From: a virus | Virus record (IMG/VR): IMGVR_UViG_3300026280_000003 | Strand: one strand, 5' to 3' | Length of the DNA: 24,737 nucleotides | Shown: positions 2,130-23,738 of the stretch, piece after piece | Numbering within the stretch: position 1 is the first letter of the stretch | How the letters are laid out: every line of letters starts with the position of its first letter | The notes under the pieces: generated by a model | Seen by the model: the letters and a program-made list of their open reading frames with translations, nothing else | What the model was told of the DNA's origin: nothing | Database searches by the model: none | Made by a program: the position numbers and the translations under genes

Positions 2130-2400
2130 TCTTCCCTCCCTTTTCTAACCCGTTTCTACTGTTTCTACTTTCCCCCTCGCCACACGCCGCCGCAATCCCT
2201 TTTCTGGAGCGCGTTTCCGATACTTATCCGAGTTTCTAACCTTTCTACTTTTTCTACTCTCTTAAGAGTGAGAAAGCTTCTAATAGCTTTCTCACTCTAT
2301 ATATTTTTTATATAATATAGCGAAAGTAGAAACGCATTCAAACCCACATGAGAAGCGGTTTTGCGTTTCTAACCCGTTTCTAACGTTTCTACTTTTACCC
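2130..2400. repeat. Putative replication origin: three clusters of three GTTTCTA(C/A) iteron-like repeats at about 10-bp spacing, flanking a palindrome and an AT-rich tract
   Basis: TTTCTA cores at about 2142, 2153, 2162; 2233, 2242, 2252; 2366, 2376, 2386, plus one inverted copy at about 2326. Lies immediately 3' of the initiator-like ATPase gene. Confidence 0.6.
2265..2320. repeat. Perfect 14-bp inverted repeat (AGAGTGAGAAAGCT / AGCTTTCTCACTCT, 6-nt spacer) followed by an AT-rich tract (ATATATTTTTTATATAATATAG)
   Basis: Read directly; the arms are exact reverse complements. The AT-rich tract is a candidate DNA-unwinding element. Confidence 0.6.
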
Positions 2401-3639
2401 ATGTATAGCCCTCCATTTGCCTCTGGAGGAGTTTTCGGCTAACCCTTGCTTTTTGAGTTCCGATAAAGCGTTCCAGACGCTTTGTTGAGACGCTCCGATG
2501 AGCTTCGCCAGGTCTGCGGGGGTCATTTCACCTTCTTCGAGGAGCAAAGAATATACAACGTCTCTAACAGTGTTTCCCGTTATGTTCGTTTTCAATTCTG
2601 TGTCCGCGCGGGAGACGAATGCGAACCCGTCTTGCCACTGCACGCGCAAGCCGATGGGATCGTGATACCCAAAGTTCGATTTTCGGTTATAGAGCGCGTA
2701 AATGAAAGTTTTTTCGTCATTGGGAGAGCGCCAGAACTTGAGCTCCCAGGTCATGCGCGCGAGGTTTTCGAAAAACACAGACCCAATTGGCATAGCTCCG
2801 TCGTCCTTCTCTTTGTGCGCTTTCGAGACATGGGAAATGATTAACACAGTTACACCCATGTCAGTTAGTTTGCGCACCTCGGCGAAGAAGCGAATCACGT
2901 TCGCCGAATCGATCAGGTCTCCTCCAGACGCCAAAGCCGCTGAGTCGAGGATAACTAATTTCACGTCGTGATGTGTGACGTTTTCAACAATGTTATATAT
3001 CTCCTCTGTCAGTGTTCTTGTGGCTGAGAGGTACAGCGGCGGGCGTTTTCCCGCGATGTCGAGCACAAGCTGGTTGAAGCGCGTATTTGTCAACGCGTAG
3101 TCGAGCTCCCAGTCCATGTAGAGGACGTTGACAGGCTCTTGACGTTGATAATTGAGATCATATCCTGACTGGAGAAGGACAGCGACATAGAGCGCAACGA
3201 TGGATTTTCCTGCACCACCTGGAGCGTAAATAAGAGCAGGGACGCGCGCAGGGAGCAAAGGATATAACAGATATTCTACGGTCGGTAGCGTCTCACAAAA
3301 TTCCAGCGGTTTAGCTTCATTAGGTGTGTGCAAGAGTGTGAAAACGTCGTTGCAGAATTTTTCGACGAGTTTGATCCAATCAACGCCCTCGAAAGGACTC
3401 CCAGCCACGACGTTTTTGATGTAGTTTGCCACGTTTTTTCGGCTTTGCGGGCTGCTCAGGCTTAGTCTTCCAGTGTAAATATGCATTCTTGTGCCATCCA
3501 CGAGGACACCTTTGATTGTTAAAAGACCCGAAGTGTGTTCGTCTTCTATGATTCGCGACAACGAAAATTCGATTGTTCCCATGGCGTAGTTTTCAAACGC
3601 ATAACACCCCAAGGGGGTCTTTTCCACGATCATATTCAT
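2395..3639 (-). CDS. Replication initiator / helicase-like RecA-fold ATPase with C-terminal winged-helix domain
   Basis: Walker A APGGAGKS and Walker B LVILDSAA; C-terminal HTH-like segment TPADLAKLIGASQQSVWNALSELKKQG. Track ORF starts at a TTG at 3660; an ATG at about 3639 overlaps the upstream stop (ATGA) and follows AAGGAGGA. Confidence 0.65.
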   Translation of the reverse strand: MNMIVEKTPLGCYAFENYAMGTIEFSLSRIIEDEHTSGLLTIKGVLVDGTRMHIYTGRLSLSSPQSRKNVANYIKNVVAGSPFEGVDWIKLVEKFCNDVFTLLHTPNEAKPLEFCETLPTVEYLLYPLLPARVPALIYAPGGAGKSIVALYVAVLLQSGYDLNYQRQEPVNVLYMDWELDYALTNTRFNQLVLDIAGKRPPLYLSATRTLTEEIYNIVENVTHHDVKLVILDSAALASGGDLIDSANVIRFFAEVRKLTDMGVTVLIISHVSKAHKEKDDGAMPIGSVFFENLARMTWELKFWRSPNDEKTFIYALYNRKSNFGYHDPIGLRVQWQDGFAFVSRADTELKTNITGNTVRDVVYSLLLEEGEMTPADLAKLIGASQQSVWNALSELKKQGLAENSSRGKWRAIHG

Positions 3640-3896
3640 TCCTCCTTGAGCTTCTCCCAATCTGTCGGTTGTGGACGTGGGCTTGAAGATTTCTTTTGAA
3701 GTTCCTTCAGTAGGACTAACAATATTTCTTGTTGCTTTGCCATCTGCTCCTCGAGCTTTTCTATTCGCTCAAGGAGCATCCTTTCGGCGCGGGAGAGTCT
3801 TCCTGACGAACGGGGCGTGAGACCCCGTTCGTGGTAGAAATCGAGCCAATCAGAAGACACAGGGAAATCGATGTAGTCTTCATTCATGCGAATCAC
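3636..3896 (-). CDS. Hypothetical protein (86 aa) with a coiled-coil segment
   Basis: ORF track; translationally coupled to the ATPase gene; no recognisable motif. Confidence 0.4.
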   Translation of the reverse strand: MIRMNEDYIDFPVSSDWLDFYHERGLTPRSSGRLSRAERMLLERIEKLEEQMAKQQEILLVLLKELQKKSSSPRPQPTDWEKLKEE

Positions 3897-4611
3897 CGTC
3901 TTGCGAGCGTGTTTCGGATAACAATGTTTGTAGCTCGTCTATCAATTTGGATGCTTGAGCTTTTGTTAGCTCTGACGAACTTTGTACGCCGTATCTTTGT
4001 TTGATATCGGCGACAATTTCTTCAACAGAGCATTCGGCTTCTTTTGCGAGATCGTGGATAAGGTGCGTGATCATTTTGATTTGCTTCTCCGTCGCAAGTT
4101 CTTGTTTTTGCGTCTGTTGCGCCGGCTTTTGCTCTGCTTCGGTGGTTTCCATATCTTCTAAGTCTTGGGTGAAAACATTTGAGGCTCCGAGCCCAGTCAA
4201 AACGGCGTCGACGTGTGCACGTTTCTTAGCCATTTTTAATATTGTGTTTGCGTTTCCAAGAGGATTATCGCTCCAATGACGTTTTTCCTTGCTGTTGCAC
4301 GAGCCGAATCCTTCTCCCACGACCTGACCAGACGCGGTTGTGAGTGTAGCCTTGAACATGTAATAAACATAGTTTTCTTCCTCAATCGCTTTTAGGAGCT
4401 CAAAATGTGGTATGAGATTGAAAAGGCGCGTGAGTTTCTCGGCACCCGACTTGTAGAGCGATGGTTTCCCTTCGCGTTTCCCGTGCGGGAAACCGTAATC
4501 GACGTCCGCTTCAAGAACTTCTTTTTGTAACAGTCTGAAGAGATCGTACTGTTCCTTCAGCGCCGTGATTTCTTGCTGTGTTACTGAGATAAGTTTTGGC
4601 AAGTCACTCAT
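3880..4611 (-). CDS. Hypothetical protein, possibly a single-strand annealing / recombination protein (ERF-like?)
   Basis: Track ORF 3880..4620 begins at a GTG that is part of GGAGGTGA; the ATG 9 nt downstream is the likely start. Sits between the resolvase and the replication ATPase. The YYMFKATLTTASG segment resembles, from memory only, the ERF core. Confidence 0.3.
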   Translation of the reverse strand: MSDLPKLISVTQQEITALKEQYDLFRLLQKEVLEADVDYGFPHGKREGKPSLYKSGAEKLTRLFNLIPHFELLKAIEEENYVYYMFKATLTTASGQVVGEGFGSCNSKEKRHWSDNPLGNANTILKMAKKRAHVDAVLTGLGASNVFTQDLEDMETTEAEQKPAQQTQKQELATEKQIKMITHLIHDLAKEAECSVEEIVADIKQRYGVQSSSELTKAQASKLIDELQTLLSETRSQDGDSHE

Positions 4612-4804
4612 TTTCTTCACCTCCCAAAACTTTCTTCAGTTCCTCGTAGAAGGCTTGTGCCTCGTCCTTTTCGAAGGTTTCCGTGCTCCCGTCTACGAAC
4701 TGGATCTGCAACAGCGGGCCGCGCGCGAAGACGTACGTTATCGCGGATACGTTGTTCGTGTTCAGCCAAATAACACTTTGCTCTTTCTGTAGCCTCACCC
4801 ACAT
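4604..4804 (-). CDS. Hypothetical small protein (66 aa)
   Basis: ATG start; preferred over an overlapping Arg-rich alternative frame (4617..4832). Confidence 0.4.
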   Translation of the reverse strand: MWVRLQKEQSVIWLNTNNVSAITYVFARGPLLQIQFVDGSTETFEKDEAQAFYEELKKVLGGEENE

Positions 4805-5092: not shown

Positions 5093-5129
5093 AAATAGAA
5101 AAAGCGCTTTAACCCTCCTTTGGGAGGGT
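5093..5129 (-). terminator. Putative intrinsic terminator/attenuator overlapping the 3' end of the resolvase gene
   Basis: Minus-strand hairpin ACCCTCC-CAAA-GGAGGGT followed by the palindrome AAAGCGCTTT and a T-rich run TTTTTCTATTT. Confidence 0.45.
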
Positions 5130-5459
5130 ATTTCGTTTCAAAAGTTTCTTCAGGGTCTCTAACTCCATGCAAACAATCCAATCTTTTCTGTCTGCTCTAA
5201 CAAAGAGCAAATCCGCGCGCTCAAGGAAACGATACAGCGTTTCAAAACCGCGTGCGCGCCTCTTGACCTCTACGACCCACTGCGGATGTCCCTTTTCGAA
5301 AACGACGACATCGCCTTTTTGGAACTCGGACGCTCCCGAAAGTGGGACGCGTTTTGCGTCGAAACCGAGCTCGCGAAGGATTTCTTCTGCCTCCTTCTCG
5401 CCACGGTATCCTTTTCTCCGCGAAAGCTTTCCCACAAACAATCCCCCCTTCTCTGCCAT
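5109..5459 (-). CDS. Holliday-junction resolvase, archaeal Hjc-type PD-(D/E)xK nuclease
   Basis: Pattern GYRGEKEAEEILRELGFDAKRVPLSGASEFQKGDVVVF...VVEVK matches the Hjc arrangement (G..E...L...GF...R...SG......D....(E)xK). Likely start is the ATG at about 5459 (RBS GAAGGGG); the track ORF begins at a GTG at 5465. Confidence 0.55.
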   Translation of the reverse strand: MAEKGGLFVGKLSRRKGYRGEKEAEEILRELGFDAKRVPLSGASEFQKGDVVVFEKGHPQWVVEVKRRARGFETLYRFLERADLLFVRADRKDWIVCMELETLKKLLKRNTLPKEG

Positions 5460-5549
5460 TTGCACCCCTTCAACAATAGTTTACCACATGAACGGCGCGG
5501 TGGCTAAGGGAGGAGAACATGGGTTGCGCTTTCTCGGTTTCATCATTCT

Positions 5550-7891: not shown

Positions 7892-7993
7892 TCACATCAA
7901 GCTCCTTACGATGATTTCGTAGATCTGCACGACGCTATCGAATGCGGAAGCTACTACCGCCACCAGAAGCAACAACACCACGAGGCATCTCAT
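7892..7993 (-). CDS. Small hydrophobic peptide (33 aa)
   Basis: Hand-translated: MRCLVVLLLLVAVVASAFDSVVQIYEIIVRSLM. Strong RBS AAAGGAGG 8 nt upstream; not in the ORF track (under 60 aa). Confidence 0.3.
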   Translation of the reverse strand: MRCLVVLLLLVAVVASAFDSVVQIYEIIVRSLM

Positions 7994-8008
7994 GATTTCG
8001 CCTCCTTT

Positions 8009-8320
8009 TCACTTTTTAAGTTTCTTTAGTACCTCGTTCAAGTACTCAATCGCCTCATCCACGTTGTTGAAGTGCTTTTTGTCGTAGATGATCTTTTCCT
8101 CTGCTTTGAGCTTTTCAAGCTCTTTTTCAAGCTTATCAAGCTCCGCTGTCTTACGTTTTTTAATCTCCTCTAACTCTGTTTTCAGCTGTTGCCTTTGCTT
8201 TTTCTTCGCTAACTCCGCTCCGCCGACGAACGCGACTAACGCGAGGATGAGCCACCAAAACCGCTTGACGAATTCTGTTGACGCTTTGAAAAACTCTTTA
8301 ATCACCTTCACTATTTTCAT
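8009..8320 (-). CDS. Type-II membrane-anchored coiled-coil protein (about 103 aa), i-spanin-like
   Basis: Likely ATG start at about 8320 (RBS GGAAGGTGAG); the track ORF extends to 8380. N-terminal TM FWWLILALVAFVGGA followed by a Lys/Glu-rich coiled coil. Confidence 0.45.
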   Translation of the reverse strand: MKIVKVIKEFFKASTEFVKRFWWLILALVAFVGGAELAKKKQRQQLKTELEEIKKRKTAELDKLEKELEKLKAEEKIIYDKKHFNNVDEAIEYLNEVLKKLKK

Positions 8321-8696
8321 TCGTCTCACCTTCCTTCGTGAGTAGTAAATCAACCAACCTGCGCGCTTGTTCGTTTGCAAGGAAGCTCACAAGACCCGTG
8401 GCGATCGCATCAACAAAATGTTCGTTCTTTCGCACACTGTGCCGCAAAGACTCATGACCCGTTATGTACCCAATTGCGTGCAAGACTTCGTGAAACAATG
8501 TTTGTGCAAACTGAGTTCGTGAGAGAAGCGGAGACACGTAGATGCGAGCATCCTCGAGGTCATAAGCGACGTGAAGTCCTTGTGTGGTTTCAATTTCCAA
8601 GCCTTCCTCTTCGCACGCCTCGGAAAGTTTTTGTTCGTCGCATATAATTCTGTATGGAACGCCTAAAATCCTTACACTTATCTCAAATCCTTTCAT
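8298..8696 (-). CDS. HExxH zinc-metallopeptidase-like protein (132 aa), translationally coupled to the endolysin
   Basis: Motif TLFHEVLHAIGYITGHE (HExxH plus a downstream His/Glu); the start ATG overlaps the endolysin stop (ATGA). Confidence 0.5.
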   Translation of the reverse strand: MKGFEISVRILGVPYRIICDEQKLSEACEEEGLEIETTQGLHVAYDLEDARIYVSPLLSRTQFAQTLFHEVLHAIGYITGHESLRHSVRKNEHFVDAIATGLVSFLANEQARRLVDLLLTKEGETNENSEGD

Positions 8697-9187
8697 CGCT
8701 TACCCTCCCCTTTGAGTCGCCAAAACTCGCTCCAAAAGAGGAAATCAATCAAGTGCGCTTTTGTCTCTTGCGGTACAGCTTCATCGATTTTGCAATTCGA
8801 CGGATCTCGCATCGCCAGCCAATTCAAAACGTTCCCAATACCCCAATTGTATGCCATGACCGCGAGAATGTCGGCACGTTCGTAGTCGAAAAACATTCTG
8901 TAAAGACGTCTAAGATAGCGAATCCCAACAAAGATGTTGCGGTCTGGTCTAAACATGTCATCGTAGTCGAAGTTTGTTGAATAAATCTGGTTTATATCCT
9001 CGAGCGCCGCGCGCGAGACCTGCATAAGTCCTCTCGCATATCCCGAATCCGCGTTAGGATCCCAGGCGCTTTCGGTTTCAATCAGCGCAAAAACGTGGTG
9101 CAACTTCGGAAAGTCCGCGACCTTGTACGCCGTCACAAAGTCAACATAGTGTGCCTCAACTAAGTGTTCAAGCATTTTTCTTGTCAT
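8693..9187 (-). CDS. Endolysin, lytic transglycosylase (SLT domain)
   Basis: Family-1 lytic transglycosylase motifs: ETES (catalytic Glu), GLMQV, and AYNWG; no signal peptide or TM segment. Confidence 0.8.
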   Translation of the reverse strand: MTRKMLEHLVEAHYVDFVTAYKVADFPKLHHVFALIETESAWDPNADSGYARGLMQVSRAALEDINQIYSTNFDYDDMFRPDRNIFVGIRYLRRLYRMFFDYERADILAVMAYNWGIGNVLNWLAMRDPSNCKIDEAVPQETKAHLIDFLFWSEFWRLKGEGKR

Positions 9188-9191
9188 GTCC

Positions 9192-9422
9192 TCACCTCCT
9201 CAGAAGGAAGGAAATTAACAAACTTATAACCGCCGAGGAAGTGAGAACCGCGAGAAAGATTTCACCGACCATGGCTTTCACGACGCCACGAACACGATTT
9301 TCCAAGTAGCCGTTTAGACGATCGGACAAGGACTTGAGTTGCTGTTTTATCTCCTCGATGTCCTTTTCCTGTGCCTTTAACAGTGTTTCAACCGCCGCAA
9401 TTCTTTCGCACAAGTTGTCCAT
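9192..9422 (-). CDS. Small tail-anchored membrane protein (76 aa), holin-like candidate
   Basis: N-terminal coiled coil and C-terminal TM (IFLAVLTSSAVISLLISFLL) ending in RR; RBS GAGGTGG; immediately upstream of the endolysin. Confidence 0.4.
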   Translation of the reverse strand: MDNLCERIAAVETLLKAQEKDIEEIKQQLKSLSDRLNGYLENRVRGVVKAMVGEIFLAVLTSSAVISLLISFLLRR

Positions 9423-9478
9423 TTTCCCACCTCACTTGAACTAGTGTTGTTTTTCTAACCTAAGTTGTCCTATCACAC

Positions 9479-10273
9479 TTATTTTACTTCGACAAGTCTA
9501 ACTTCTTTTTTCTTCTCTTCTCTGTAAAGCTTCACGATCACATGGCATCTGGGAACAAGCGGAAACAGCTTTTGATCCGCATACTTTGCTCGCGCCCACG
9601 CCGACACGCAGACATGAAGAATGTTTCTTTCAATCACTTTCTTGTTCAGAGGATCATACTCCTCGACCGCCGTCATCGCGGTCATTGGCGCGTGCGTGTG
9701 CCCCGTGATGTAAATATCTGCGCGCTGGATTCGTTCGAAAAAGTATCTGTGTTGACGTACGGAGCGTTCTGGAAAACGTCCTCCCGCAACGCCGTGATGG
9801 CATACAATCGAATACTGTGTACGTCCTCTTGAACCGCGCGCAGAGCCGTTCAAAGCTACGTCGACGATCAAAAAATCATCACTGAACGGTACGCCTAACT
9901 CTGTGCAAATCAAGCGAATCGGATCCACACCCGCGACGCGCCACGTGCGACGCTCGTGATTTCCTCCCACAACACCCAAGATGCGTTCTTTCCAGCGCCG
10001 AAGAATGTTAGTCACTTCTTCTATCGCTCGGTGCGGAGGCCTGTCCTGCGAATACACGTCACCGATACTCGAGATTATCGCGTTGTCGATCAAGTCGCCT
10101 AACAGAATTAGCTTGTATTCAGGGTGCATATCCACGAACGCGACAGCTTCGTGAAAGTAACTTCCCGTCTCGCCGATGTGAAGATCCCCGAGAGGCAAGA
10201 TCTCGACCTCGCTTGTGTCGAGGTCATAGCGAACAACACGGCTGATGTCATGCTCCCCCCGCGCCTTGCTCAT
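9479..10273 (-). CDS. Calcineurin-like metallophosphoesterase
   Basis: All signature motifs in order: GDLHIG (GDxH), GDLIDN (GDxxD), GGNHE (GNHE), CHHG, GHTH (GHxH). ATGA overlap with the upstream 56-aa ORF. Confidence 0.8.
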   Translation of the reverse strand: MSKARGEHDISRVVRYDLDTSEVEILPLGDLHIGETGSYFHEAVAFVDMHPEYKLILLGDLIDNAIISSIGDVYSQDRPPHRAIEEVTNILRRWKERILGVVGGNHERRTWRVAGVDPIRLICTELGVPFSDDFLIVDVALNGSARGSRGRTQYSIVCHHGVAGGRFPERSVRQHRYFFERIQRADIYITGHTHAPMTAMTAVEEYDPLNKKVIERNILHVCVSAWARAKYADQKLFPLVPRCHVIVKLYREEKKKEVRLVEVK

Positions 10274-10440
10274 GCGATCACCTCAGTAGTCGCTTGAAAG
10301 ATAGTTTCTCGAAGTTGTTTCAACTCCTCAAGAGTCTTTGCGCGCGCGATAGCTTGTTTCATATCCGCGTTGAATTGGCGTATTTGTTGTCTTTGAGCAA
10401 GTTTAGTCTGAGAAAAGTTTCTTGCACTAAGATTGATCAT
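10270..10440 (-). CDS. Hypothetical small protein (56 aa), translationally coupled to the metallophosphoesterase
   Basis: Hand-translated: MINLSARNFSQTKLAQRQQIRQFNADMKQAIARAKTLEELKQLRETIFQATTEVIA. RBS AAGGAG; stop overlaps the phosphoesterase ATG. Confidence 0.35.
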   Translation of the reverse strand: MINLSARNFSQTKLAQRQQIRQFNADMKQAIARAKTLEELKQLRETIFQATTEVIA

Positions 10441-10454
10441 TCCTCCTCACTCCT

Positions 10455-10898
10455 TCACGGAGTTGAGAAGCGCATGATACCAGCTTGGTTCCAGATGATC
10501 GTGAACTCGCCATTTTCTGAACTTTTGTTTTGTCCAAAATCGACGTATCCGAGCAAGGGCTTCTCGTCTGCGGACGTGCCAATATCCGCATATAGGACCG
10601 CATATCGTGCCGTGATCGTCGCGTTTGGCCAAGACACGTCGTCCGCGTCGAAAATCGTGTAATTGTTCGCCGCGTCGTATGTTAGCGTCTTGTTCGCCAA
10701 AGCTTGCCCGCCGGCTGTGTAGCCTTCCCCTGTGATTTCGTGGCTTACTACGTCAGAAAGAAACTTGTGGTTGTCTTGGTCTGGCGTGTAAGTGTGTGCG
10801 AGAAGCATAACTTTGATAGGGTCGTTTAACAAATCCACAGGGTGCGTGGACAACGCAAGTTTTGGGAACTGTCCATATGCTTTCGCCGTTACTGGCAT
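10455..10898 (-). CDS. Putative tail fibre / receptor-binding associated protein (147 aa)
   Basis: Position at the distal end of the tail module; Thr/Asn/Gly-rich; no motif recognised. Confidence 0.35.
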   Translation of the reverse strand: MPVTAKAYGQFPKLALSTHPVDLLNDPIKVMLLAHTYTPDQDNHKFLSDVVSHEITGEGYTAGGQALANKTLTYDAANNYTIFDADDVSWPNATITARYAVLYADIGTSADEKPLLGYVDFGQNKSSENGEFTIIWNQAGIMRFSTP

Positions 10899-10946: not shown

Positions 10947-11981
10947 TCAGAAAGGACTTTGATCGACCACGGGAATCGTCGTCGTCCCTAAATCTATTTC
11001 CGCCACGACGCGCCCCGAATATCCAGTCAAGGGACTTGCTTCAAGCGCAAGCACAAGACCGAAATATTGAAACCCATCTGGCGCTTCAATTGCTTGCGGA
11101 GTTATATTCGACAAATTCACGTCCACGTATGAGCCTAAAGAAGGCGGATTAAATTCAACTAACAAGTTGTTGATCGCTATCGCGATATAACCTGGCTCAA
11201 AAATGGCAAATTTTGCGTCATAGAGGCGGAATTTTTTCAAATTGCTATGCATCCTCGAATCACGCACAAAGAACGTGTATTGAAGCGCGCTCGTGCGCGG
11301 TCTGATCGAATCTAACCCTGCTTGAAAAGCTGAAATTCTGTAGTGTGGTGTCACTGTGTTAGAACCCTGACCGAGGACAAGCGCGGGATAAGCTATCCCC
11401 CACGCGGTTCTTTCTCGTATTTGCCCATTTATCTCGCGAGCCGGTGGGTGCACTTCGTCGATGCTCGGCATTTGCGACACCGGTTCGGCACCGCTGCGGA
11501 AATACTCTCTAACATAGTTTTGTGTCACCGTTTCGGACTTTCTCTGCCGAAACTCGCCAGGAACCTGACTGGTGAAAGTGTATCCGCCTTCGTATTCTGC
11601 GTAGTAAATCGCATACTTGTTAAAACAAAATTCTGGGAACGTTGACGTGATATCGCTCGGGTAAAGTTTGTCCCGCGGAAAGCCTACATATTGGATATCG
11701 CAAATGGAACCATCTTGGCGCGTGAAATAAATGAAGTCAACAAAACCAGTGTTAGACACGTCACGCAAAATGTGACTAAGCGGACTTAGCAAAAGATTCC
11801 CTTCAACCGCGTAACCCCAATCAGTTATGTTTAATCCAGAATGCGCGAACACTCCGACCTTCAAACCAATTTGGCGTATCGCATTCCATAAAGCTAACAC
11901 ATTTGAAGCGGATCTCACAAAGACAAACGCATTCGTATGTGATGAAAGCGTCCGAATCGCGTTATAGTCCCCAATTTGCAT
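10947..11981 (-). CDS. Putative tail fibre / receptor-binding protein (344 aa)
   Basis: Position in the tail-tip gene block; no motif recognised. Confidence 0.4.
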   Translation of the reverse strand: MQIGDYNAIRTLSSHTNAFVFVRSASNVLALWNAIRQIGLKVGVFAHSGLNITDWGYAVEGNLLLSPLSHILRDVSNTGFVDFIYFTRQDGSICDIQYVGFPRDKLYPSDITSTFPEFCFNKYAIYYAEYEGGYTFTSQVPGEFRQRKSETVTQNYVREYFRSGAEPVSQMPSIDEVHPPAREINGQIRERTAWGIAYPALVLGQGSNTVTPHYRISAFQAGLDSIRPRTSALQYTFFVRDSRMHSNLKKFRLYDAKFAIFEPGYIAIAINNLLVEFNPPSLGSYVDVNLSNITPQAIEAPDGFQYFGLVLALEASPLTGYSGRVVAEIDLGTTTIPVVDQSPF

Positions 11982-11993
11982 CTTAACTCCTCC

Positions 11994-12734
11994 TCATAAT
12001 AATAGATCATACGTTGTTGACGCCGACGTGGTAAAGAACCGGAGATTATGCTTCAACTTCAAACGCAAAATACTCCCTTTTATGCAACGAAAAGGAATCG
12101 AAACGTTGTAAGTGACAGTCAATATCCCTGAAGAGAGCGACAAACTTGGAGCGCAATCCACCGTTTGTTCAATCGTGCAGTTTGTGAAATTCCCATTCAC
12201 AGCTTGCACGAAACGCGTTTCAGGACCCGAAACAACGTAATAAAGAGTGTTATAGAATCGAAAACGATACGCCACTAAATTAGATACGTTCTTTGTCGGC
12301 GCTATTCCCAAATTGACCACTGGAAAAAACTCGGAAGGAGTGAGAAACAGACCCGACCAAATCCTATTAATGAAAGTGTTTCCATAGCTCCAATTAAAGA
12401 TAGGGTCAGCTGAAGAAGTTAGCGCCCCCATGCTCGTGTATTGTGGGAACAAGATCCCATACCCGGCACGGTACGTGCCTTTTTTGATGATAATCGCTCT
12501 AAATTTTGAAACGTTGTTTTCCTTGTAAAAATCAACGTCGATAACAGGACCGTTTAGGAATTGTCCGATTACCCACAAACCTAACGGCGTGTAATCCGCT
12601 CCCACAAATTCCACCTCACTTTGGTAGAAAACAAAACCTTTGCCACGGTCGAACTTGTAACAGCGTATGCGCTGGCCACGCCGAATAGGTTCCCAAATAA
12701 TCATAGCACTCAATTTCTGTGTAGTTGCTAACAT
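11994..12734 (-). CDS. Putative tail-tip/baseplate protein (246 aa by track; start uncertain)
   Basis: Track ORF overlaps the upstream gene by about 119 nt in a different frame; a GTG at about 12614 lies just after the upstream TGA. Confidence 0.35.
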   Translation of the reverse strand: MLATTQKLSAMIIWEPIRRGQRIRCYKFDRGKGFVFYQSEVEFVGADYTPLGLWVIGQFLNGPVIDVDFYKENNVSKFRAIIIKKGTYRAGYGILFPQYTSMGALTSSADPIFNWSYGNTFINRIWSGLFLTPSEFFPVVNLGIAPTKNVSNLVAYRFRFYNTLYYVVSGPETRFVQAVNGNFTNCTIEQTVDCAPSLSLSSGILTVTYNVSIPFRCIKGSILRLKLKHNLRFFTTSASTTYDLLL

Positions 12735-13842
12735 TCAAAGCGCGGTCGCAGAAGAACGCGTACAAATGTCCGAGATTTTCAGTCAAACTTCCTATCAAAT
12801 ACTGTTGCTCTAAAACGAACACGCCTGGGATCTTCGCCATTGTGTCTCCTTGTATGGCATTGGGAATGTCATAGAGGATTTCAGCTTCTTGTTCGCCTTG
12901 GGTGTTGAAAACGCCAATTTTGTTCACTTTTGGCACGAAGAAGCGCGCGCCAGTAGCGTCGAAAAACGCTTGCAGAGCCAGCGTGTCCTCATCTGGAACA
13001 TAAGCAAGTAACCGAGTGTCGCTTATCAGTGTTTCTGCAATCCAAACTTGTTTCGCTGGTCCTGATACAGAAACTATTCCCGCCACTGGCCCCCTTATAA
13101 GCGTCACTGTCGCGATCGTTTCCGCCACGCTCGAACCATCAGACCTAAAAATCTTCATTTCAACCATGTTTTCTATGAACGTGTCGTACTTCGCCACGAC
13201 CATAAACGATTGTGAGTTTTCAATATCTATGTGAGGTATGTCGGGTTCCGCGAAAAGGAGCCTGTGCAAAGCGTTGAATGACACTTTTTGCAAGTATGGA
13301 CCGTACTCTGAGTCGTAAACGATTTCAAAAACACTTACACCCTTATTAGTACGCACGCACACGTACTTTTCGCCAGCACTAATAGACACAGCCGAAAACG
13401 ACGCGCCGATGAGGCCGAACGCTTCCAGATAGTCTCCGCCAAAGTAAAGCCCATAAAACCACCCATATTTCACTCCACGGAAGGCGCATATGAGGCCATT
13501 TATCGCGTAAGGGATAACAACCCGCGGTTCTAACATTGTCACATGAATCTCAGTCGTCGGGATCTCCAACACAGCTGGCGCTTCGAGGCTAACAATGACG
13601 TTCGGAGTCCCTTTATAGAAAAGTTTTTCGACGAGAGGAACAACGTTCATGCCTGGTCCAAACAACAATCTTTGACCGAGCGAATAATCTTTTGTGGCGG
13701 GTAGGTAGCAACTTTCGCCGTTGTAGGAAACCTCTGCCCAGCGCCTTCCTTGCGCGTCTGTGACGAATCGTTCAAGAGGGATGATGTCTATTTCATTTCG
13801 ATACCTTTCAATCACGCGTTCAATTGGATCGCGTCTCATCAT
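12616..13842 (-). CDS. Putative tail-tip/baseplate structural protein (408 aa)
   Basis: Large ORF in the tail module downstream of the tape measure; no motif recognised. Confidence 0.45.
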   Translation of the reverse strand: MMRRDPIERVIERYRNEIDIIPLERFVTDAQGRRWAEVSYNGESCYLPATKDYSLGQRLLFGPGMNVVPLVEKLFYKGTPNVIVSLEAPAVLEIPTTEIHVTMLEPRVVIPYAINGLICAFRGVKYGWFYGLYFGGDYLEAFGLIGASFSAVSISAGEKYVCVRTNKGVSVFEIVYDSEYGPYLQKVSFNALHRLLFAEPDIPHIDIENSQSFMVVAKYDTFIENMVEMKIFRSDGSSVAETIATVTLIRGPVAGIVSVSGPAKQVWIAETLISDTRLLAYVPDEDTLALQAFFDATGARFFVPKVNKIGVFNTQGEQEAEILYDIPNAIQGDTMAKIPGVFVLEQQYLIGSLTENLGHLYAFFCDRALNVSNYTEIECYDYLGTYSAWPAHTLLQVRPWQRFCFLPK

Positions 13843-14066
13843 GTTAAAAGCACCTCAGAACCTTTTCTCAGCGCGACCACACGCATACCTTTTCGCATCC
13901 ACCGCGTCGCAGGGACGGTCGCCGTTGTGCCGTCGTCTAACTCTATTTGTGCCCAGTAAGCCGAAAGTCCCTGAATCTGGTATATTCCAGCTATATGCCC
14001 CGAGACAATCACAGTCGCTTGGGACTCGCGCAGTTTCTTTCCTACTCCGCGTTTTAACTGTCTCAT
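13839..14066 (-). CDS. Hypothetical small tail-module protein (75 aa)
   Basis: ATGA-coupled between two large tail genes. Confidence 0.35.
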   Translation of the reverse strand: MRQLKRGVGKKLRESQATVIVSGHIAGIYQIQGLSAYWAQIELDDGTTATVPATRWMRKGMRVVALRKGSEVLLT

Positions 14067-15280
14067 CCGATCACCTCAATTTCAGCTTCTGCGACTTCTG
14101 TCAGTTCGTCATAGCCTATCCGCACAGCTTGCACGATACCGTTCTCGCTCGGTCCGAGGGTCGGAATCGAATTTATTTCGTCTCCTCTGAATTCCTTAGC
14201 GTAGGTTAACTTTGTCAAAGCTCCGTTCCAAAAGAGCATATAACTCGCGTAATTGTGTCTAAAAGGGGCTGGCACGTGGCTCACATCGACTTCAAGGTAA
14301 GGTTCGTTACCGTGGGTGTACGTGCCTGTGAGCGTGTAGCTAACATTGAGAGACACAGAAAAGTCTGGAGTCAGACGAAAAGCGCGATCAATTCCAAGAA
14401 CCTGGCACGCTTGCTCGAACACAACGCGCGCGGGTTCTGGAGATTCAGAATCGTATGGCAAGACGAGCCTGAATTTTAAGTTTATTACGCGGTTATCTTC
14501 CGCGCTGTAGCCCCATTCTTTGCGTCCTGGTGTCGTGTCCTCTGTTATTCCTCTAATAAAGCCAGACAAATAGGATGAAACGCTGTAGACCTCATTTATT
14601 TCGCTGTATGGCAGATATTCGGCGTATTCGAGATAGATCGACACATACTTGTTTTCGCCTGCTTCGAATGGTTTGCCGATGATGGCGCGCAAACGGTCTC
14701 TGTCTGTTAGGTAAATCTCGTGATCTTTGAGAACCGAAGTTTTGTAGCTGTACTTGTACTTGTAGCCGTTGAAGATCTCGTAGCTAAACGATCCTGTTTC
14801 TAACTCCGCAAAGAGAGCCGATTCGGGTACTGAAATGGTGTGATGCGTTAGTTCGAAGAGTCTAACAGTGTTCGCGTCTACCATATACCAGCTTCTGCCA
14901 GCCAATTCTGCGATGTATTGAACGAATTCACGCACCGTGCCAGAAAAGTTCACGACGAATGGGTCTTCTGTTTCAGGTACGTTTTCAATTATGATCAGCG
15001 ATTCGTTGGCGAGCGCTTGCAGGTTCGCAAACGGAGCAAAGCGGAAGAATTTCTCTTCAAAAACAGGATTAGTGTAGACAAAATCATACACATTCTGAAA
15101 CGCTTTCACAGAGCCTTTGACGCCGAACCACGTGGATCTTTTTCGAATTATCTTTCCCTGTATCGTGACGCTACCAAGCGTGAGCGAAACCTGGGAACCC
15201 ACTTCGCGGTCCTCAGTTGTTGTGATTCGTCCAACAAACTCGGTTGATTCGATCTTCATTTCATACTCGTATTGCCTCAT
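14063..15280 (-). CDS. Putative distal tail protein (405 aa)
   Basis: Immediately downstream of, and overlapping, the tape measure gene, the usual position of a distal tail protein in siphoviruses. Confidence 0.4.
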   Translation of the reverse strand: MRQYEYEMKIESTEFVGRITTTEDREVGSQVSLTLGSVTIQGKIIRKRSTWFGVKGSVKAFQNVYDFVYTNPVFEEKFFRFAPFANLQALANESLIIIENVPETEDPFVVNFSGTVREFVQYIAELAGRSWYMVDANTVRLFELTHHTISVPESALFAELETGSFSYEIFNGYKYKYSYKTSVLKDHEIYLTDRDRLRAIIGKPFEAGENKYVSIYLEYAEYLPYSEINEVYSVSSYLSGFIRGITEDTTPGRKEWGYSAEDNRVINLKFRLVLPYDSESPEPARVVFEQACQVLGIDRAFRLTPDFSVSLNVSYTLTGTYTHGNEPYLEVDVSHVPAPFRHNYASYMLFWNGALTKLTYAKEFRGDEINSIPTLGPSENGIVQAVRIGYDELTEVAEAEIEVIG

Positions 15281-17115
15281 GGCCGCGCTCCTTCAAATAT
15301 TTCTGTCAAGATCGAGCGTTTCAAATTTTCGCCAGCCTTGCGCCATTCTGCGTCGAAGTCGGAGATGTCCACGCGGATCTTGTATTCCCTCACGACTCTT
15401 TCCGCACGTTCTCGTATTTCCCTCGGGATCGCTAAAGCTCCTGCCCCCGTTGCCGCTATCTGCGTTATCGCTTCTGGAATCGTTCTCGCTCTTCCATACG
15501 CCACAAGCTCTTGCGCCATGAGACGGAGTCTATCAATCTCAGCTGGCGCAGTTGTTGTGAGATAGCGCAAAACTTCATTCGCCGTCTCTGCCATACGAGT
15601 CTCAGTTTCTATGCGCTTTGTCTCTTTCTTTATTTTGAACAGGTCCACGAGTATTTTCACAAGCTCGATCGCTTTGTAAAGGTCAAAAATCAACAGCCCC
15701 ACGACTCCCGCAACGGTCGCAATCGTTGCGCCAGCCGCAGCAAAAGCTGTTTGAATAGCGTGCGCCGCTTTCACGGCAAGGTCAGGGAGCATCGAAAAGC
15801 CCGAAGCGATCTTGGACAGAATCACAGGCACGTCGAGCGCGATGAACTTTTTGAAGATCTCTATCGCATCGCTAACCCCGACAACGAGTTTGCCGATTGC
15901 ACCAGCTGCGGTTAACCCAACGCCACCAAAAACAACCAACTTCGCGATTGCGTTTTGGACTCCTTCAGGTAGCGAATTAAACCAGTTCACAAGATCCTGA
16001 AGCGGTTTCAAAACAGTTTTTAGCGCTTCAAATACTGCGGGAAAGATCGAATACGCCATCTCTTTAAGGGAGGTAAGCGCCATTTGATATTGAGCATACG
16101 GAGTTTTCGCCATCTCGTCTGCAAGCTTTTTCGCTTCGCCTGAAGCGTTTTGAAAACTCGTCGTGAGTTCGTCCACGCGGGATGCGTTGTCTATGAGTAC
16201 TTTCAGAGCCGCTGCGGCGCGGTCTCCAACAATGTAAGCGAGATCCTGAAACGACGCATTTGCGTTCGCCAAGGCCGTGACTATTTCACCCAAAGTATGT
16301 TTTGTTGGGTCTAACTGTTCGAGTGACAAGCCAAGAGCTTTAATGGATTCCGCTGCGACCTTGCTTGGCGTCACTAGCCCGCCAATGATCATTCGCAGAC
16401 TCATCGCCGCTTGGCTTGACTCTATTCCCGCTTGGTTCAACAATGCTAACGCCGCCGCAGTTTCTTCGAAACTCAATCCCGCTTCTTTCGCCATTCTTCC
16501 AACTGCCAAAAGACCCGTGCCTAACTTGTCTATGTTCACGCCAAGTTCATTCGAAACATATGCGAATACATCAACAACTTTCTGTGTTTCTTCGACGCTC
16601 AAGCCGAAACGCGACATCGTGTTGGAAACGTAATTAGCGATGTCGCCAACATTTTTCATTGAGCCAGCCGCGAGCTCTGCGATCGAGGGGATCATCTTGA
16701 TCACGTCAACGCCCTTCACGCCTTCAGACGCGAGAACCGCCATGCCTTGCGCCACTTCGGTAGCACTCAACGGCAGGCTCTTGCTAATATCGCGCGCGAC
16801 CATCTCAAGATCCTTGAATTTATCAGCCGTGAAGCCTGCGACCGTACCAGCTTCCGCGATCGCTTTGTTGAGGTCCAAGCCTATCGCCGTGACGACTCCC
16901 GCAATCCCTGTCGCCGCAGCGCCTAAGCCCAAGAAGGTGTTTGACACCTTGTTTAAGTCATTTCTTAGTTCGTCCCAACCGAGCCCCCGCGCGCTTTTCC
17001 TTCCCGCGGCGGTCACAGCTTCGGCGGTTCGCTCGGCGTTATTGGCGACTTCTTTCAAAGCCGAGGACGCTTTATCTTCAGCCTCGATGAGGATTCTAAC
17101 TTTGTCATCTGCCAT
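15277..17115 (-). CDS. Tail tape measure protein (612 aa)
   Basis: Long Ala/Gly/Leu-rich alpha-helical protein with hydrophobic glycine-rich segments (VVFGGVGLTAAGAIGKLVVGV; AAAGATIATVAGVVGLLIF); follows the tail chaperone candidate; RBS GGGAGG. Confidence 0.75.
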   Translation of the reverse strand: MADDKVRILIEAEDKASSALKEVANNAERTAEAVTAAGRKSARGLGWDELRNDLNKVSNTFLGLGAAATGIAGVVTAIGLDLNKAIAEAGTVAGFTADKFKDLEMVARDISKSLPLSATEVAQGMAVLASEGVKGVDVIKMIPSIAELAAGSMKNVGDIANYVSNTMSRFGLSVEETQKVVDVFAYVSNELGVNIDKLGTGLLAVGRMAKEAGLSFEETAAALALLNQAGIESSQAAMSLRMIIGGLVTPSKVAAESIKALGLSLEQLDPTKHTLGEIVTALANANASFQDLAYIVGDRAAAALKVLIDNASRVDELTTSFQNASGEAKKLADEMAKTPYAQYQMALTSLKEMAYSIFPAVFEALKTVLKPLQDLVNWFNSLPEGVQNAIAKLVVFGGVGLTAAGAIGKLVVGVSDAIEIFKKFIALDVPVILSKIASGFSMLPDLAVKAAHAIQTAFAAAGATIATVAGVVGLLIFDLYKAIELVKILVDLFKIKKETKRIETETRMAETANEVLRYLTTTAPAEIDRLRLMAQELVAYGRARTIPEAITQIAATGAGALAIPREIRERAERVVREYKIRVDISDFDAEWRKAGENLKRSILTEIFEGARP

Positions 17116-20603: not shown

Positions 20604-21758
20604 TTACTTCCAGCGCATTTGTTTAGCCACAATATCAACAATGTCAGCGCTATCTGGGTTCACGAATTGACGTACCAAATTGCGTTTCGTGTGCTCTGCG
20701 AGTTTCAAGATACTTTCTTTGTCCATCTTACCTTCTTTGAATAGTCTAACATATTCTTCGGCAAGTGCTGGCGGTACACCTTTTTTGACTAACTCTTGTT
20801 TGAACGCGTTGAGCTCGCGCTCTCTTTCTTTCTCTTTGAATTCGTTGATCGTGTTCTCGTACTCTGTTAGCTTGTCCATAAGATGTTTGTTCATTCTTTT
20901 CAGGCGCTCGATCTCCTCGCACAACGCGACTTCGTCCGAGCCACGGAATTCTTCTCCGAACAGTTCGTAAATCTCCTTGATCTTGCGAATAACTTCGAGC
21001 TTTTCCGCGTCTGTCAGATCGACCTCAACACCACGCGCGCCATGCAGGTAAGCAAGTGCCGCGACGGCGGCGCGAAAGTAAAGGTGAAATTCTCCGTTTT
21101 CGAGTTTGCAGACTGGAAACTTGTAGGCTGCTTTCACTTCAGGAACTCCGCTGGGGCCTTCTTCAAAATCGCGCGTGTTCGCGTACAAATGACACTTCGC
21201 ATACGCTTTCCATCCTTTTTCCTCGATAATTTTGTTTCCATCCCGCGCGTCGTCCCAGTCCCATTGCTTCGTGCGCTCGGGAACAACAAGCATCCCGTTC
21301 CAACGTTTCCTCTCGCTGAGGAGTCGTCGCATACCCGAAAACATGGCGATGAAAACATCTTTGAAAGTTAGCTTCGTCTCAGGAAGCGCGGGGCGATTCG
21401 TGAGCGCGACGCCGAGCAACACGACACCGACTTCCTCTCCCGTCTCGCGGTCCACATAAGCGAAGTCGATTTCGGGGCTCACGTACTCGTACTTGTGTTC
21501 CTCTAACATTTTTTGTCCTTCCTCATTTAGTTCGAGCACTGCCCACAAGCCGTCTTCTTCGATGTAGAGCTCCTTCACGTCGCCGTACTTTTCACTTGAT
21601 TCGTGATCAATGTTCACGAACGGCTTGTAGTGTGGATAGCCTTTGTTGAAGTTCTTCACGATCTCTTCGGCGAGCTCTTTCGTAAACTCGATGGGTTCCT
21701 TTTGACCGTACACGTAGATTTTGCCGAAAGGAAGAATCTTCGCTTTCGCTAACATCAT
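20604..21758 (-). CDS. Prohead protease / scaffold protein (Mu gpI-like), with a C-terminal coiled coil
   Basis: N-terminal region VNIDHES...DGLWAVLELNEEG...YEYVSPEIDF resembles the Mu I pattern (VDYEH...DGLY...YRY.SP.F); C-terminal half is Glu/Lys-rich coiled coil. Confidence 0.6.
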   Translation of the reverse strand: MMLAKAKILPFGKIYVYGQKEPIEFTKELAEEIVKNFNKGYPHYKPFVNIDHESSEKYGDVKELYIEEDGLWAVLELNEEGQKMLEEHKYEYVSPEIDFAYVDRETGEEVGVVLLGVALTNRPALPETKLTFKDVFIAMFSGMRRLLSERKRWNGMLVVPERTKQWDWDDARDGNKIIEEKGWKAYAKCHLYANTRDFEEGPSGVPEVKAAYKFPVCKLENGEFHLYFRAAVAALAYLHGARGVEVDLTDAEKLEVIRKIKEIYELFGEEFRGSDEVALCEEIERLKRMNKHLMDKLTEYENTINEFKEKERERELNAFKQELVKKGVPPALAEEYVRLFKEGKMDKESILKLAEHTKRNLVRQFVNPDSADIVDIVAKQMRWK

Positions 21759-21759
21759 T

Positions 21760-22623
21760 TCACCTCACCGTCCTCAAAATTTCCCTCACTATTTCGACAT
21801 CCTCAGGACGCTTTTGGATCTCGGGAAGCTCAGCCATTTTGTGTTCGTCGAGAATTTCTTGCGTCTTCACGTGGTGCAATTCTGGGATTAGATAAGAGCG
21901 ACAATTCACGTGCAAAGGAGGCGTGTTCAGAGCAAGAATATCAACATTGTGAGCTGGGATGAACATTCCATGACGCTCTTGGCAAATTTCTGTTGTTCTG
22001 TCGTCCAACACGGCGGTGAATCGGTAACCTTCGATGTACTGAACAGTGTTTGCGAGATTTCCGACGTTGAAAGCGCGTGTTGTTTCGGTGCGCGCAATAG
22101 CCTTCGCGCGCTTTTTCTCGAACGCTTTGAACTGCTCTTGGATGTATTTTATCGCTTCTTCTTCGCTCATTCCGCGCAACAATGTTTGACGAACCGCGTC
22201 TGTGATCTCTGTCGCTAACGCTCGCAATTCGTATTGCGACACGCTAACCGTGTAGGACTCTAAGAATTTTAGCGCGGGTTTGTGAGCGTGAAAGACATAG
22301 TTAACCGCTTCCTCAGCGTTCTCGAAGACCTTTCCTATGACCTTCGCTAAGATTTGCCATTCACTTGTCAAAGATTGTTTGAGATACAGATAAAGCTCCT
22401 CCTCTGAGAACGTCGCTAATCTGCGTGGGCGCTTGCGAACGCTCGTGAGAACTCCTAAGCTGAAGGCGTAGAGTAGCGGGCGAAAGAGATTTTCGGCTCC
22501 TTGTTCCACATCTATCTTACCAGTGTTAAGGTAGTTGTCAAGACTTTTTTTGAACACTCTTTGCACGTTGAACAATATTTTTCGCTCCGAAGAAAGCATG
22601 AGTTTACCAACGACGCTCGACAC
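21760..22623 (-). CDS. Head morphogenesis protein (Mu F-like / SPP1 gp7 family)
   Basis: Conserved ARTETTRAFN and DDRTTEICQ...HVNCRSY motifs. Confidence 0.75.
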   Translation of the reverse strand: MSSVVGKLMLSSERKILFNVQRVFKKSLDNYLNTGKIDVEQGAENLFRPLLYAFSLGVLTSVRKRPRRLATFSEEELYLYLKQSLTSEWQILAKVIGKVFENAEEAVNYVFHAHKPALKFLESYTVSVSQYELRALATEITDAVRQTLLRGMSEEEAIKYIQEQFKAFEKKRAKAIARTETTRAFNVGNLANTVQYIEGYRFTAVLDDRTTEICQERHGMFIPAHNVDILALNTPPLHVNCRSYLIPELHHVKTQEILDEHKMAELPEIQKRPEDVEIVREILRTVR

Positions 22624-22625
22624 GA

Positions 22626-23738
22626 TTACTCCTCCAACTTCGGCAGATTTAATTCAGAGCGAATGAATTCCGCGTCCGCGACGAGGTCCAAGACGCCAAC
22701 TTCAAGTAGTTTCACGATGATATCCGTCATGGCCTGTTTGGCCTCGATGTCTTTGTCTTCCCTAATCTTGAAAAACCCATAACTCTCGATGTTCGAGAAG
22801 TTGTAGTCGAGTATTCGCGCAACAAGCTGGTCAATGAGCAATTCGGCCACATAGTTCGCCTCGGCCGCGGCGACGGACCGAAACACGTCAAGATGAGATT
22901 TTGCGAGCGCGTACGAACCAACCTTGTCCTGTTTCATGATAGCTTGCGGGATCAAAAGACCGCGCAAGATCAGCGTGTTGAGATACTCGATCGCTTGTTG
23001 GAACACGTCTCCAATATTGCGCGAGCTTTCCAAAAGTTGAACCTCATCATCTTTGTATACCGCGACAACGCCGTTGCGGTAAAGATTCTTCAACGCGTCT
23101 GCGAGAGCTTGCGTGTCGCTAACAGTCTTTCCCAGAATTGCAGGAGCCGCGAAACGTTCCATAGCCGTTGCCCAATATTTCACAAGCATGTCTTTCATCT
23201 TGAAGCGCGGATAAATGCGCGCCAACACACTCTTAGGCGCAAAAATAGAACCACGGAACAGGATCAAGCATTTTTCAACTGGGATTTCGACAACCTCGCC
23301 TGGTTGCTGGTACTTGACGGCTGTCAAAATTTGTTTGTTGTTTTCGTCCTTTTCGGTCACGAAGCTAACGCGTGTGATGTCGAGAGGTATGAGGCCTTTA
23401 AAATAAACCTTGTCTTGTTTGATTGTCCAAAGAATCTCAGCGACGCTGATTCCCCATGCGAAGTAAGAAGTGAGGAGGTTATGTAACTGTTGGCGAATCG
23501 AATAGCGCGCTTGTTCAAAGTTAGCTCTGACGAAGTTTTGTAGCTCCTCGACCGGGTTGAAGTAATCTCCAATCATGCCGAGAGTTGTGTTCGAGAGGAT
23601 GTCCAAGCCTGCGCCGATCGTCTCATCTCGCAACATCTTTTCGACGTCTTGCGCCGTGAGACGCAAAGGAACCGACTCTAAAGATGTTAGCGAAGGTAAA
23701 AGGTGTTCGCTCGCGTACTGCCGGAGATCCACACTCAT
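22626..23738 (-). CDS. Portal protein (370 aa)
   Basis: Immediately downstream of TerL with an ATGA overlap and upstream of the Mu F-like gene; assignment is by synteny and size only. Confidence 0.55.
   Translation of the reverse strand: MSVDLRQYASEHLLPSLTSLESVPLRLTAQDVEKMLRDETIGAGLDILSNTTLGMIGDYFNPVEELQNFVRANFEQARYSIRQQLHNLLTSYFAWGISVAEILWTIKQDKVYFKGLIPLDITRVSFVTEKDENNKQILTAVKYQQPGEVVEIPVEKCLILFRGSIFAPKSVLARIYPRFKMKDMLVKYWATAMERFAAPAILGKTVSDTQALADALKNLYRNGVVAVYKDDEVQLLESSRNIGDVFQQAIEYLNTLILRGLLIPQAIMKQDKVGSYALAKSHLDVFRSVAAAEANYVAELLIDQLVARILDYNFSNIESYGFFKIREDKDIEAKQAMTDIIVKLLEVGVLDLVADAEFIRSELNLPKLEE

Follow-up and report, generated by a model that had tools for sequence, protein, structure and literature searches.

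A predicted stand-alone metallophosphoesterase beside the lysis cassette of a small hot-spring phage, and a probable deletion scar upstream of it

Three enzymes have been named as precedents for a metallophosphoesterase (MPE) that works as a stand-alone protein. The MPE of Pseudomonas putida, which is monomeric and cap-less, cuts ssDNA as a Mn-dependent endonuclease and requires the histidine of motif III (PMC7826289). The mycobacteriophage protein Bxb1 gp47 has been described as a nuclease-like replication factor and as the directionality factor (RDF) of a serine integrase. The gp47 homologue A10ZJ24 gp48 has phosphodiesterase activity and disrupts the genomic DNA of the host, by which it counters host defences (PMC12287305). 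Other MPEs are built or partnered differently. Mre11 and SbcD have a C-terminal capping domain and pair with an ATPase of the Rad50/SbcC type, DP1 of PolD has an N-terminal OB-fold and a DP2/PolB partner, PdeM sits with a Lhr/ligase operon, and lambda phosphatase is of the PPP type, with the motifs GDxHG...GDxVDRG...GNHE at PPP spacing. In Thermotogota, a protein annotated as 'DNA repair exonuclease' (Marpi_0340) is encoded by one of the few genes conserved in Group 1 proviruses (bioRxiv 10.1101/2020.11.07.368316). Here we describe an MPE related to the Thermotogota proteins, encoded by a small phage genome from a hot-spring metagenome.

The window, that is, the whole 24,737-nucleotide stretch of DNA that was analysed (IMG/VR record IMGVR_UViG_3300026280_000003), was examined for completeness. 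Joining its end to its start produced a single uninterrupted terminase ORF of 448 aa with a Walker A motif, which identifies the window as the complete genome of a 24.7-kb phage in circularly permuted form. The window is matched at 100% by a JGI metagenome contig of 50.8 kb that appears to carry ~2 copies of the genome. Mu-like portal, F and I proteins and an E-type capsid are encoded, together with a Hjc/PDDEXK resolvase, a GemA-like protein and an AAA_25 helicase. In the complete genome we detected no integrase of any kind, no DNA polymerase and no SMC-like ATPase (Rad50/SbcC-type), the largest ORF being the 612-aa tape-measure protein. A megablast search of the whole window against phage genomes returned no match.

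The tail-fibre region and the lysis cassette flank the MPE gene (Table 1), an arrangement that the first-pass annotation had read correctly. The tape-measure gene, several tail-region genes without annotation and a PHROG 644 gene are found on its 5' side, and the XhlA-like and SLT genes on its 3' side are accompanied by genes for an M78-like and an Rz-like protein. The MPV1 homologue of the XhlA-like protein is annotated as holin-like. A motif scan found no promoter or terminator around the MPE gene or between the neighbouring genes; GC content is uniform, with no GC island.

Table 1. Coordinates of the MPE gene, its neighbours and the deletions at the locus (positions in the window).
Feature	Position	Strand	Remarks
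SLT lytic transglycosylase (endolysin)	8693..9187	minus	Pfam SLT E 3.8e-18; PHROG 669 endolysin
XhlA/hemolysin-like protein, 76 aa, C-terminal transmembrane segment	9192..9422	minus	PHROG 1193, E 7e-6; first lysis-cassette gene
MPE gene, 264 aa, ATG start	9479..10273	minus	predicted single-domain binuclear MPE, PHROG 7339
56-aa ORF, ATG start	10270..10440	minus	probable in-frame deletion-fusion remnant
Shine-Dalgarno-like GAGGTGA	10278..10284	minus	4 nt 5' of MPE ATG, within the end of the upstream ORF; sequence reading
5-bp deletion (AACTC, flanked by ACT repeats)	10285..10290		from alignment
955-bp deletion junction relative to contig L102	10390..10394		L102 3098-4052 absent; short imperfect microhomology; blastn coordinates
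147-aa protein, PHROG 644 (function unknown)	10455..10898	minus	E 1e-35; last intact tail-fibre-region gene
Conserved block, MPE and lysis cassette	7919..10394	minus	kept together across recombination breakpoints
Tape-measure protein	15277-17115		upstream of MPE

The 264-aa gene almost certainly encodes a real MPE with an intact active site. The five motifs of the calcineurin-like superfamily are present in order, with their metal ligands: GDLH (G29-H32), GDLID (G59-D63), GNHE (104-107), H160 and GHTH (191-194). The score with Pfam Metallophos (PF00149) is 29.4 bits, above the gathering threshold of 21.5. The complete ordered motif set reported for this protein in the first-pass annotation is thereby borne out. 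In an alignment of 22 sequences (the MPE and 21 homologues at 29-57% identity), D30, H32, D60, N105, H106, H160, H192 and H194 are invariant. S69, R109, G161, D186 and Y231 are also invariant and are specific to the family, and G164, G165 and R166 are nearly so (≥90%). The predicted α/β sandwich agrees with known MPE folds, and neither a signal peptide nor a membrane segment was found. To judge from its sequence, the gene is expressed as a protein and is under purifying selection, with dN/dS = 0.10 at dS 0.67 in comparison with an 82%-identical relative.

The MPE belongs to PHROG 7339, which it matches significantly and at full length (E 6.2e-51, 174 bits; residues 16-261 against profile positions 23-262 of 263). 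The database label of this PHROG, 'DNA repair exonuclease', is an annotation by weak similarity, and a literature search found no experimental study of any member. The closest relatives from cultured phages are proteins of the Marinitoga phages MPV1, MCV1 and MCV2 (47-51% identity), followed by Thermosipho and Marinitoga prophage proteins (46-53% identity). Considered together, MPV1 (MPV1_42), MCV1, MCV2 (UF09_41) and the Thermosipho proviruses share 47-57% full-length identity with the window MPE, as well as its size and motifs. Gene order agrees as well, running from the tail fibre through a variable small ORF to the MPE, the XhlA-like protein and the transglycosylase. The genomes differ. 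That of the window phage, which comes from a hot-spring metagenome and is 24.7 kb long, has Mu-like head genes and another set of tail-fibre genes, and lacks an integrase.

When 1.84 billion representatives were searched with the family profile, 1,020 proteins matched at E≤1e-30, rising to 4,054 at E≤1e-10; counted by clustering at 50% identity, the family has ~1,000 representatives. IMG/VR contigs encode at least 272 relatives. Nearly all of the best 150 matches listed are single-domain proteins of 250-270 aa, and when the family was screened for fusion to other domains, N-terminal extensions and a single intein-like insertion were all that emerged, but no fused domain that was informative. 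The window MPE is an ordinary new member of a known and widespread phage family, common rather than rare, that is already annotated in Marinitoga phages.

We compared the predicted fold with solved structures. The highest fold-comparison figure was obtained with the PolD DP1 proofreading exonuclease (17.6; 207 residues aligned), followed by Mre11 (15.2), MJ0936 (14.6), the Pol delta B-subunit (14.4), SbcD (13.2) and LpxH (12.9). DP1 was also the best PDB sequence match of the family profile (E 0.011, C-terminal strands included); a single-sequence phmmer search of the PDB with the MPE gave nothing useful. The NCBIfam models for YfcE, PdeM, SbcD and the PolD small subunit were matched only far below their cut-offs. 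With TIGR00619 (Mre11/SbcD) the window MPE scored 14 bits against a cut-off of 77.65, and in contrast to Mre11 and SbcD it is a single-domain protein of 264 aa in a genome with no detected Rad50/SbcC-type ATPase. Unlike DP1, it has neither an OB-fold nor a DP2-binding domain, and the sub-threshold matches to the PolD small-subunit model NF003118, seen in 3 of 22 family members, do not include it. The P. putida MPE/PdeM type (COG1407, ligase-associated) shares the motif-III histidine with the window MPE, and distant homologues in Geobacillus phages are assigned to COG1407. However, the window MPE reached 17.4 bits against the PdeM cut-off of 150 (TIGR04123), and it is encoded in a phage late operon instead of next to Lhr and ligase genes. 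In terms of its modelled structure, the MPE thus appears to be a distinct stand-alone enzyme whose nearest folds are nucleases.

The closest CHARACTERISED proteins are the mycobacteriophage MPEs Bxb1 gp47 and its homologue A10ZJ24 gp48, which on sequence comparison are remote relatives and functional analogues from another family. Bxb1 gp47 defines PHROG 221, which also contains L5 gp54 and A10ZJ24 gp48. Apart from PHROG 7339, the window MPE matched no PHROG but this one, and the match is partial rather than full-length (21 bits, E 3.2e-4). An hhalign comparison of PHROG 7339 with PHROG 221 gave a probability of 90.5% (E 1.4e-6) over motifs I-III only (85 columns), and pairwise BLASTP between the window MPE and gp47 was not significant; the relationship is therefore remote. 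The two proteins differ in motif I (D-x-Q in gp47, D-x-H in the window MPE) and in setting. Bxb1 gp47 is encoded in the early replication arm and serves as RDF for a serine integrase, whereas the window phage has no such integrase.

We next surveyed gene context by calling ORFs in 90 loci, clustering the neighbours and annotating the major clusters (74 non-identical family members). In the close members, ~14 of the 74, the MPE is encoded between the tail genes and the lysis cassette, and an XhlA-like gene follows 1-4 genes later in 11 of these loci. This position is kept down to about 35-41% identity, even where an amidase endolysin replaces SLT. The first-pass annotation had put the MPE gene at a classic accessory-gene position; the gene proved conserved rather than sporadic, holding its position to ~35% identity and being one of the few genes that Thermotogota Group 1 proviruses are reported to share. 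The surroundings of the more distant members (~30% identity, n=60) are different. At least 30 of them lie within 7 genes of the large terminase, 22 upstream of it (in some cases accompanied by an HNH gene) and 8 downstream, several of these between terminase and portal. In a 36%-identity relative the MPE gene is part of a RecA-helicase-PolA-DnaB-MPE-primase operon, in Geobacillus phages it follows DNA methyltransferase genes, and in Bacillus phage Staley it precedes an HNH endonuclease gene.

In nucleotide comparisons by blastn, the conserved block (Table 1) is 98.9-99.0% identical to contigs L003, L004 and L102 and 82.5% identical to L098. Upstream of 10394-10402 no homology with L003, L004 or L098 was found. 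This recombination breakpoint at the block edge leaves the MPE gene joined to the lysis genes within the block.

The same contigs bear on the short ORF upstream of the MPE. Its TGA stop overlaps the MPE start codon (ATGA), and the first-pass annotation had taken it for a translationally coupled partner. The coordinates of the two minus-strand ORFs and their overlap were accurate, but the partnership gave way to a different explanation once the upstream DNA was traced. In contigs L003-L005, whose MPE is 98% identical, a 147-aa gene lies directly upstream of the MPE, and the last ~40 codons of that gene make up the 3' part of the 56-aa ORF. Contig L102 (27.7 kb; 99% identical to the window on both flanks) contains, in order, the PHROG 644 gene, a 164-aa gene starting MINLNARNFSQTKLAQGIDATTT, this 147-aa gene and the MPE gene, with the PHROG 644 gene immediately 5' of the 164-aa gene. 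In blastn alignments with L102, the match to the window breaks off at L102 position 3100 and resumes from 4051. The junction of this 955-bp deletion coincides with the 5' edge of the block common to L003/L004/L102 and L098. Note that L102 carries another 1.16 kb that is absent from the window.

[quoted passage not shown] The last 4 codons were altered by the 5-bp deletion, which changed the C-terminus from ...NSLR to ...TEVIA and generated the ATGA overlap. A 55-aa variant (P0065) with the same junction, without the 5-bp deletion, keeps ...NSLR and stops 4 nt before the MPE ATG, so that the overlap is a product of the window variant alone. The GAGGTGA element is also present in relatives whose upstream gene ends 4 nt before the MPE ATG.

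Full-length members of the 147-aa family were found in 32 clusters. Searches with the full-length gene against Pfam and PHROG gave only noise, and the proposed accessory role in tail-fibre function is thus suggested by position alone. Searches with the 56-aa ORF against Pfam, PHROG, NCBIfam and PADLOC gave no matches. The ORF is a chimera of two genes, and the Marinitoga MPEs are preceded by ORFs related neither to one another nor to it. We therefore consider it very probably a scar that a deletion left in the hypervariable tail-fibre region, and not a partner of the MPE, although the peptide could be translated. An AAGGAG/GGAGG sequence ahead of a start codon, the ATGA overlap, and the recurrence of the same junction in ~5 contigs from several samples, indicating that it is tolerated, would all be expected of a genuine, translationally coupled functional partner. 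Such a role is nevertheless highly improbable, given that the ORF was assembled from two unrelated genes by the 955-bp deletion and that a 99%-identical MPE adjoins an intact 147-aa gene (intact in L003, L004, L098 and L102). Moreover, the 55-aa variant has no ATGA overlap, the upstream genes of other MPE relatives, those of Marinitoga included, are unrelated or offer no counterpart, and the 147-aa family also occurs with no adjacent MPE, behind fibre-like genes (~330 aa), for example in a Thermocrinis Great Boiling Spring virus.

What, then, might the MPE do? The available evidence points to a DNA-directed phosphodiesterase over a second-messenger or virion role. The leading proposal, to which we give an even chance, is that the MPE is a stand-alone binuclear DNA phosphodiesterase, co-transcribed with the late genes and acting on host DNA and/or phage intermediates; our estimate that DNA is the substrate is equally balanced. 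As envisaged, the enzyme would be a Mn2+/dimetal-dependent exo- or endonuclease of the Mre11/PolD-DP1-like branch, working with no capping domain and no ATPase partner. D30, H32, D60, N105, H160, H192 and H194 would bind a pair of metal ions, which in turn would activate a water molecule, with H106 protonating the leaving group and R109 and R166, both called invariant, holding the backbone phosphate. Transcribed with the tail and lysis genes of an integrase-less phage, the enzyme would act ahead of packaging, attacking the DNA of the host, intermediates of phage replication or recombination, or both. Counted against a DNA role are the Hjc/PDDEXK-type resolvase that the phage already has and the restriction of the similarity with gp47 to motifs I-III. 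Furthermore, because the MPE gene rides with the lysis cassette and not with replication genes in the closest relatives, a lysis-linked or other late role would fit its position equally well.

One alternative is that the MPE counters host defence as a phosphodiesterase that destroys nucleotide second messengers, such as the signals of CBASS, Pycsar, Thoeris and type III CRISPR systems; degradation of such messengers was the role put first in the first-pass annotation. MPEs include cyclic-nucleotide phosphodiesterases, and small phosphodiesterases of the YfcE/MJ0936 type are found among the fold neighbours and the weak profile matches of the window protein. The two arginines called invariant are near the active site and could bind nucleotide phosphates, and late co-expression with structural proteins would match the triggers of many abortive-infection systems. 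We nevertheless regard this function as unlikely. The top fold neighbours are nucleases, the contexts of the relatives are DNA-centred (terminase, HNH, methyltransferase, replisome), and the PADLOC defence models gave no match to the MPE at E≤0.01. Moreover, a literature search found no phage MPE that degrades signalling nucleotides. To our knowledge, the known anti-signal nucleases have folds other than that of MPEs: Acb1 is a 2H phosphoesterase and Apyc1 a metallo-β-lactamase-fold enzyme.

The place of the gene beside the lysis cassette is what a lysis-linked, envelope-directed or virion-associated phosphodiesterase would lead one to expect. Such an enzyme, with chemistry like that of LpxH or GpdQ, would cut an envelope component held by a phosphodiester or pyrophosphate link and so aid lysis or, if packaged, entry. 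This function is also improbable. The MPE has no signal peptide or membrane segment that would direct it to the envelope, and as a single-domain protein of 264 aa it shows no apparent extra domain; as pointed out in the discussion of Bxb1 gp47, an LpxH-type lipid-binding cap is missing from Mre11 and DP1. The more distant family members are encoded far from lysis genes, and the synteny at the end of the late operon may be historical rather than functional. A broader version of this idea appears doubtful as well. It holds that the family is not primarily one of DNA enzymes but provides a late factor tied to the XhlA-like lysis cassette of thermophile phages (e.g. for cleavage of phosphodiester or pyrophosphate bonds in envelope precursors), and that it doubles, separately, as RDF in Thermotogota proviruses with large serine integrases. 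If this were true, the integrase-less window phage would display the ancestral, non-RDF function of the MPE.

Two further readings are close to excluded. A protein Ser/Thr phosphatase that acts on host proteins in the manner of lambda phosphatase would share the superfamily and the GDxH/GDxxD/GNHE motifs with the window MPE, but is extremely improbable: lambda phosphatase ranks only 53rd among the fold neighbours (10.1), and the window MPE shows neither the PPP motif set and spacing nor a close fold. The least credible for this genome, and rejected here, is a moonlighting role as RDF of a large serine integrase, of the kind described for Bxb1 gp47 (a stand-alone MPE of equal size; PMC1470463), because the complete circular 24.7-kb genome has no detected integrase on which it could act and many family members come from phages with no serine recombinase nearby. 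MPV1 and MCV2 do encode serine recombinase integrases, a few genes downstream of the MPE, and integrase and MPE are among the few genes conserved in Thermotogota Group 1 proviruses; an RDF role is conceivable only for these provirus relatives.

In conclusion, the apparent two-gene coupled system is best read as an artefact of tail-fibre cassette decay, which leaves the small ORF a poor partner candidate and not one to pursue. The recently characterised mycobacteriophage MPEs, to which the family is linked, function in replication, in damage to host DNA and as a serine-integrase directionality factor. A biochemical assignment of the MPE would annotate thousands of phage genes (~1,000 clusters at 50% identity).

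Joining window positions 23735-24737 to 1-314 produced a single uninterrupted large-terminase ORF of 448 aa. Because both ends join into one terminase ORF, the window is a complete, circularly permuted phage genome of 24.7 kb. A 50.8-kb JGI contig matched the window at 100% and appears to contain approximately two genome copies. Besides Mu-like head genes, the phage encodes a resolvase, a GemA-like protein and a helicase (see table). No integrase or transposase was detected anywhere in the complete 24.7-kb genome. Relatives derived from hot-spring metagenomes and Thermotogota.

Coordinates of genes in the window and in two Marinitoga phages
Sequence	Coordinates	Feature	Class
Window	2395-3660	AAA_25 helicase with wHTH domain	
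Window	3880-4620	GemA-like protein	
Window	5109-5465	Hjc/PDDEXK resolvase	
Window	20604-21758	Mu I	Mu-like head gene
Window	21760-22623	Mu F	Mu-like head gene
Window	22626-23738	Mu-like portal	Head gene
MPV1 (L001)	9004-9771 and 11871-13340	Metallophosphoesterase (MPE) and large serine recombinase integrase	
MCV2 (L002)	9004-9765 and 13537-15006	MPE and large serine recombinase integrase	

Comparison with L102, a relative sharing the MPE gene and lysis block, revealed a second indel in the tail-fibre region (window 10913/10914 versus L102 1417-2576). Here L102 has an additional 1.16 kb that separates the 344-aa gene from the PHROG 644 gene; this stretch encodes a 298-aa ORF rich in EPSLRR-like repeats. 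The fibre region is a hotspot at which cassettes are gained and lost. A further mosaic junction was found at window 7918/7919, immediately past the lysis cassette (versus L003 2695-4289 and L098 4190-5065, from two other such relatives). At this position L003 contains ~1.6 kb with three additional genes (182, 199 and 176 aa), and L098 contains a Trypsin_2 protease gene. Within the lysis cassette, flanked by the SLT endolysin on one side and an Rz-like gene on the other, a 132-aa protein (window 8298-8696) showed weak similarity to M78/IrrE-like metallopeptidases (HExxH); it is kept in L003, L098 and L102. Note that a gene of the Cas_VVA1548 family (8306-8842) lies at the end of the L098 contig, which carries a block closely related to the MPE/lysis block. 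The L098 phage may have integrated beside a CRISPR locus or been assembled together with one.

The MPE family includes unusual members. In P0210 (583 aa), recovered in the representative search, an insertion of ~300 aa splits the MPE domain and gave a weak, sub-threshold match to an intein splicing domain. Inteins occur in MPEs of the mycobacteriophage gp47 type. In one clade of distant relatives (L006, L039, L056, L066, L083 and others), the MPE gene lies between the large terminase and portal genes, an unusual slot in the packaging module. At L083, homing endonucleases are located near the MPE gene in this slot.

According to the literature, gp47 is the recombination directionality factor (RDF) of mycobacteriophage Bxb1 (PMC1470463), whereas RefSeq NC_002656 (L104 9876-10788) assigns this label to gp46 (5.3 kDa) and lists gp47 as 'metallo-phosphoesterase'. 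Given this discrepancy, the RefSeq record looks like a case of annotation shift between gp46 and gp47. In the Marinitoga phages, a large serine recombinase integrase is encoded a few genes downstream of the MPE, and both are among the few genes conserved across Thermotogota Group 1 proviruses (bioRxiv 10.1101/2020.11.07.368316). By analogy with Bxb1 gp47, the MPE of the Marinitoga phages could be their RDF.
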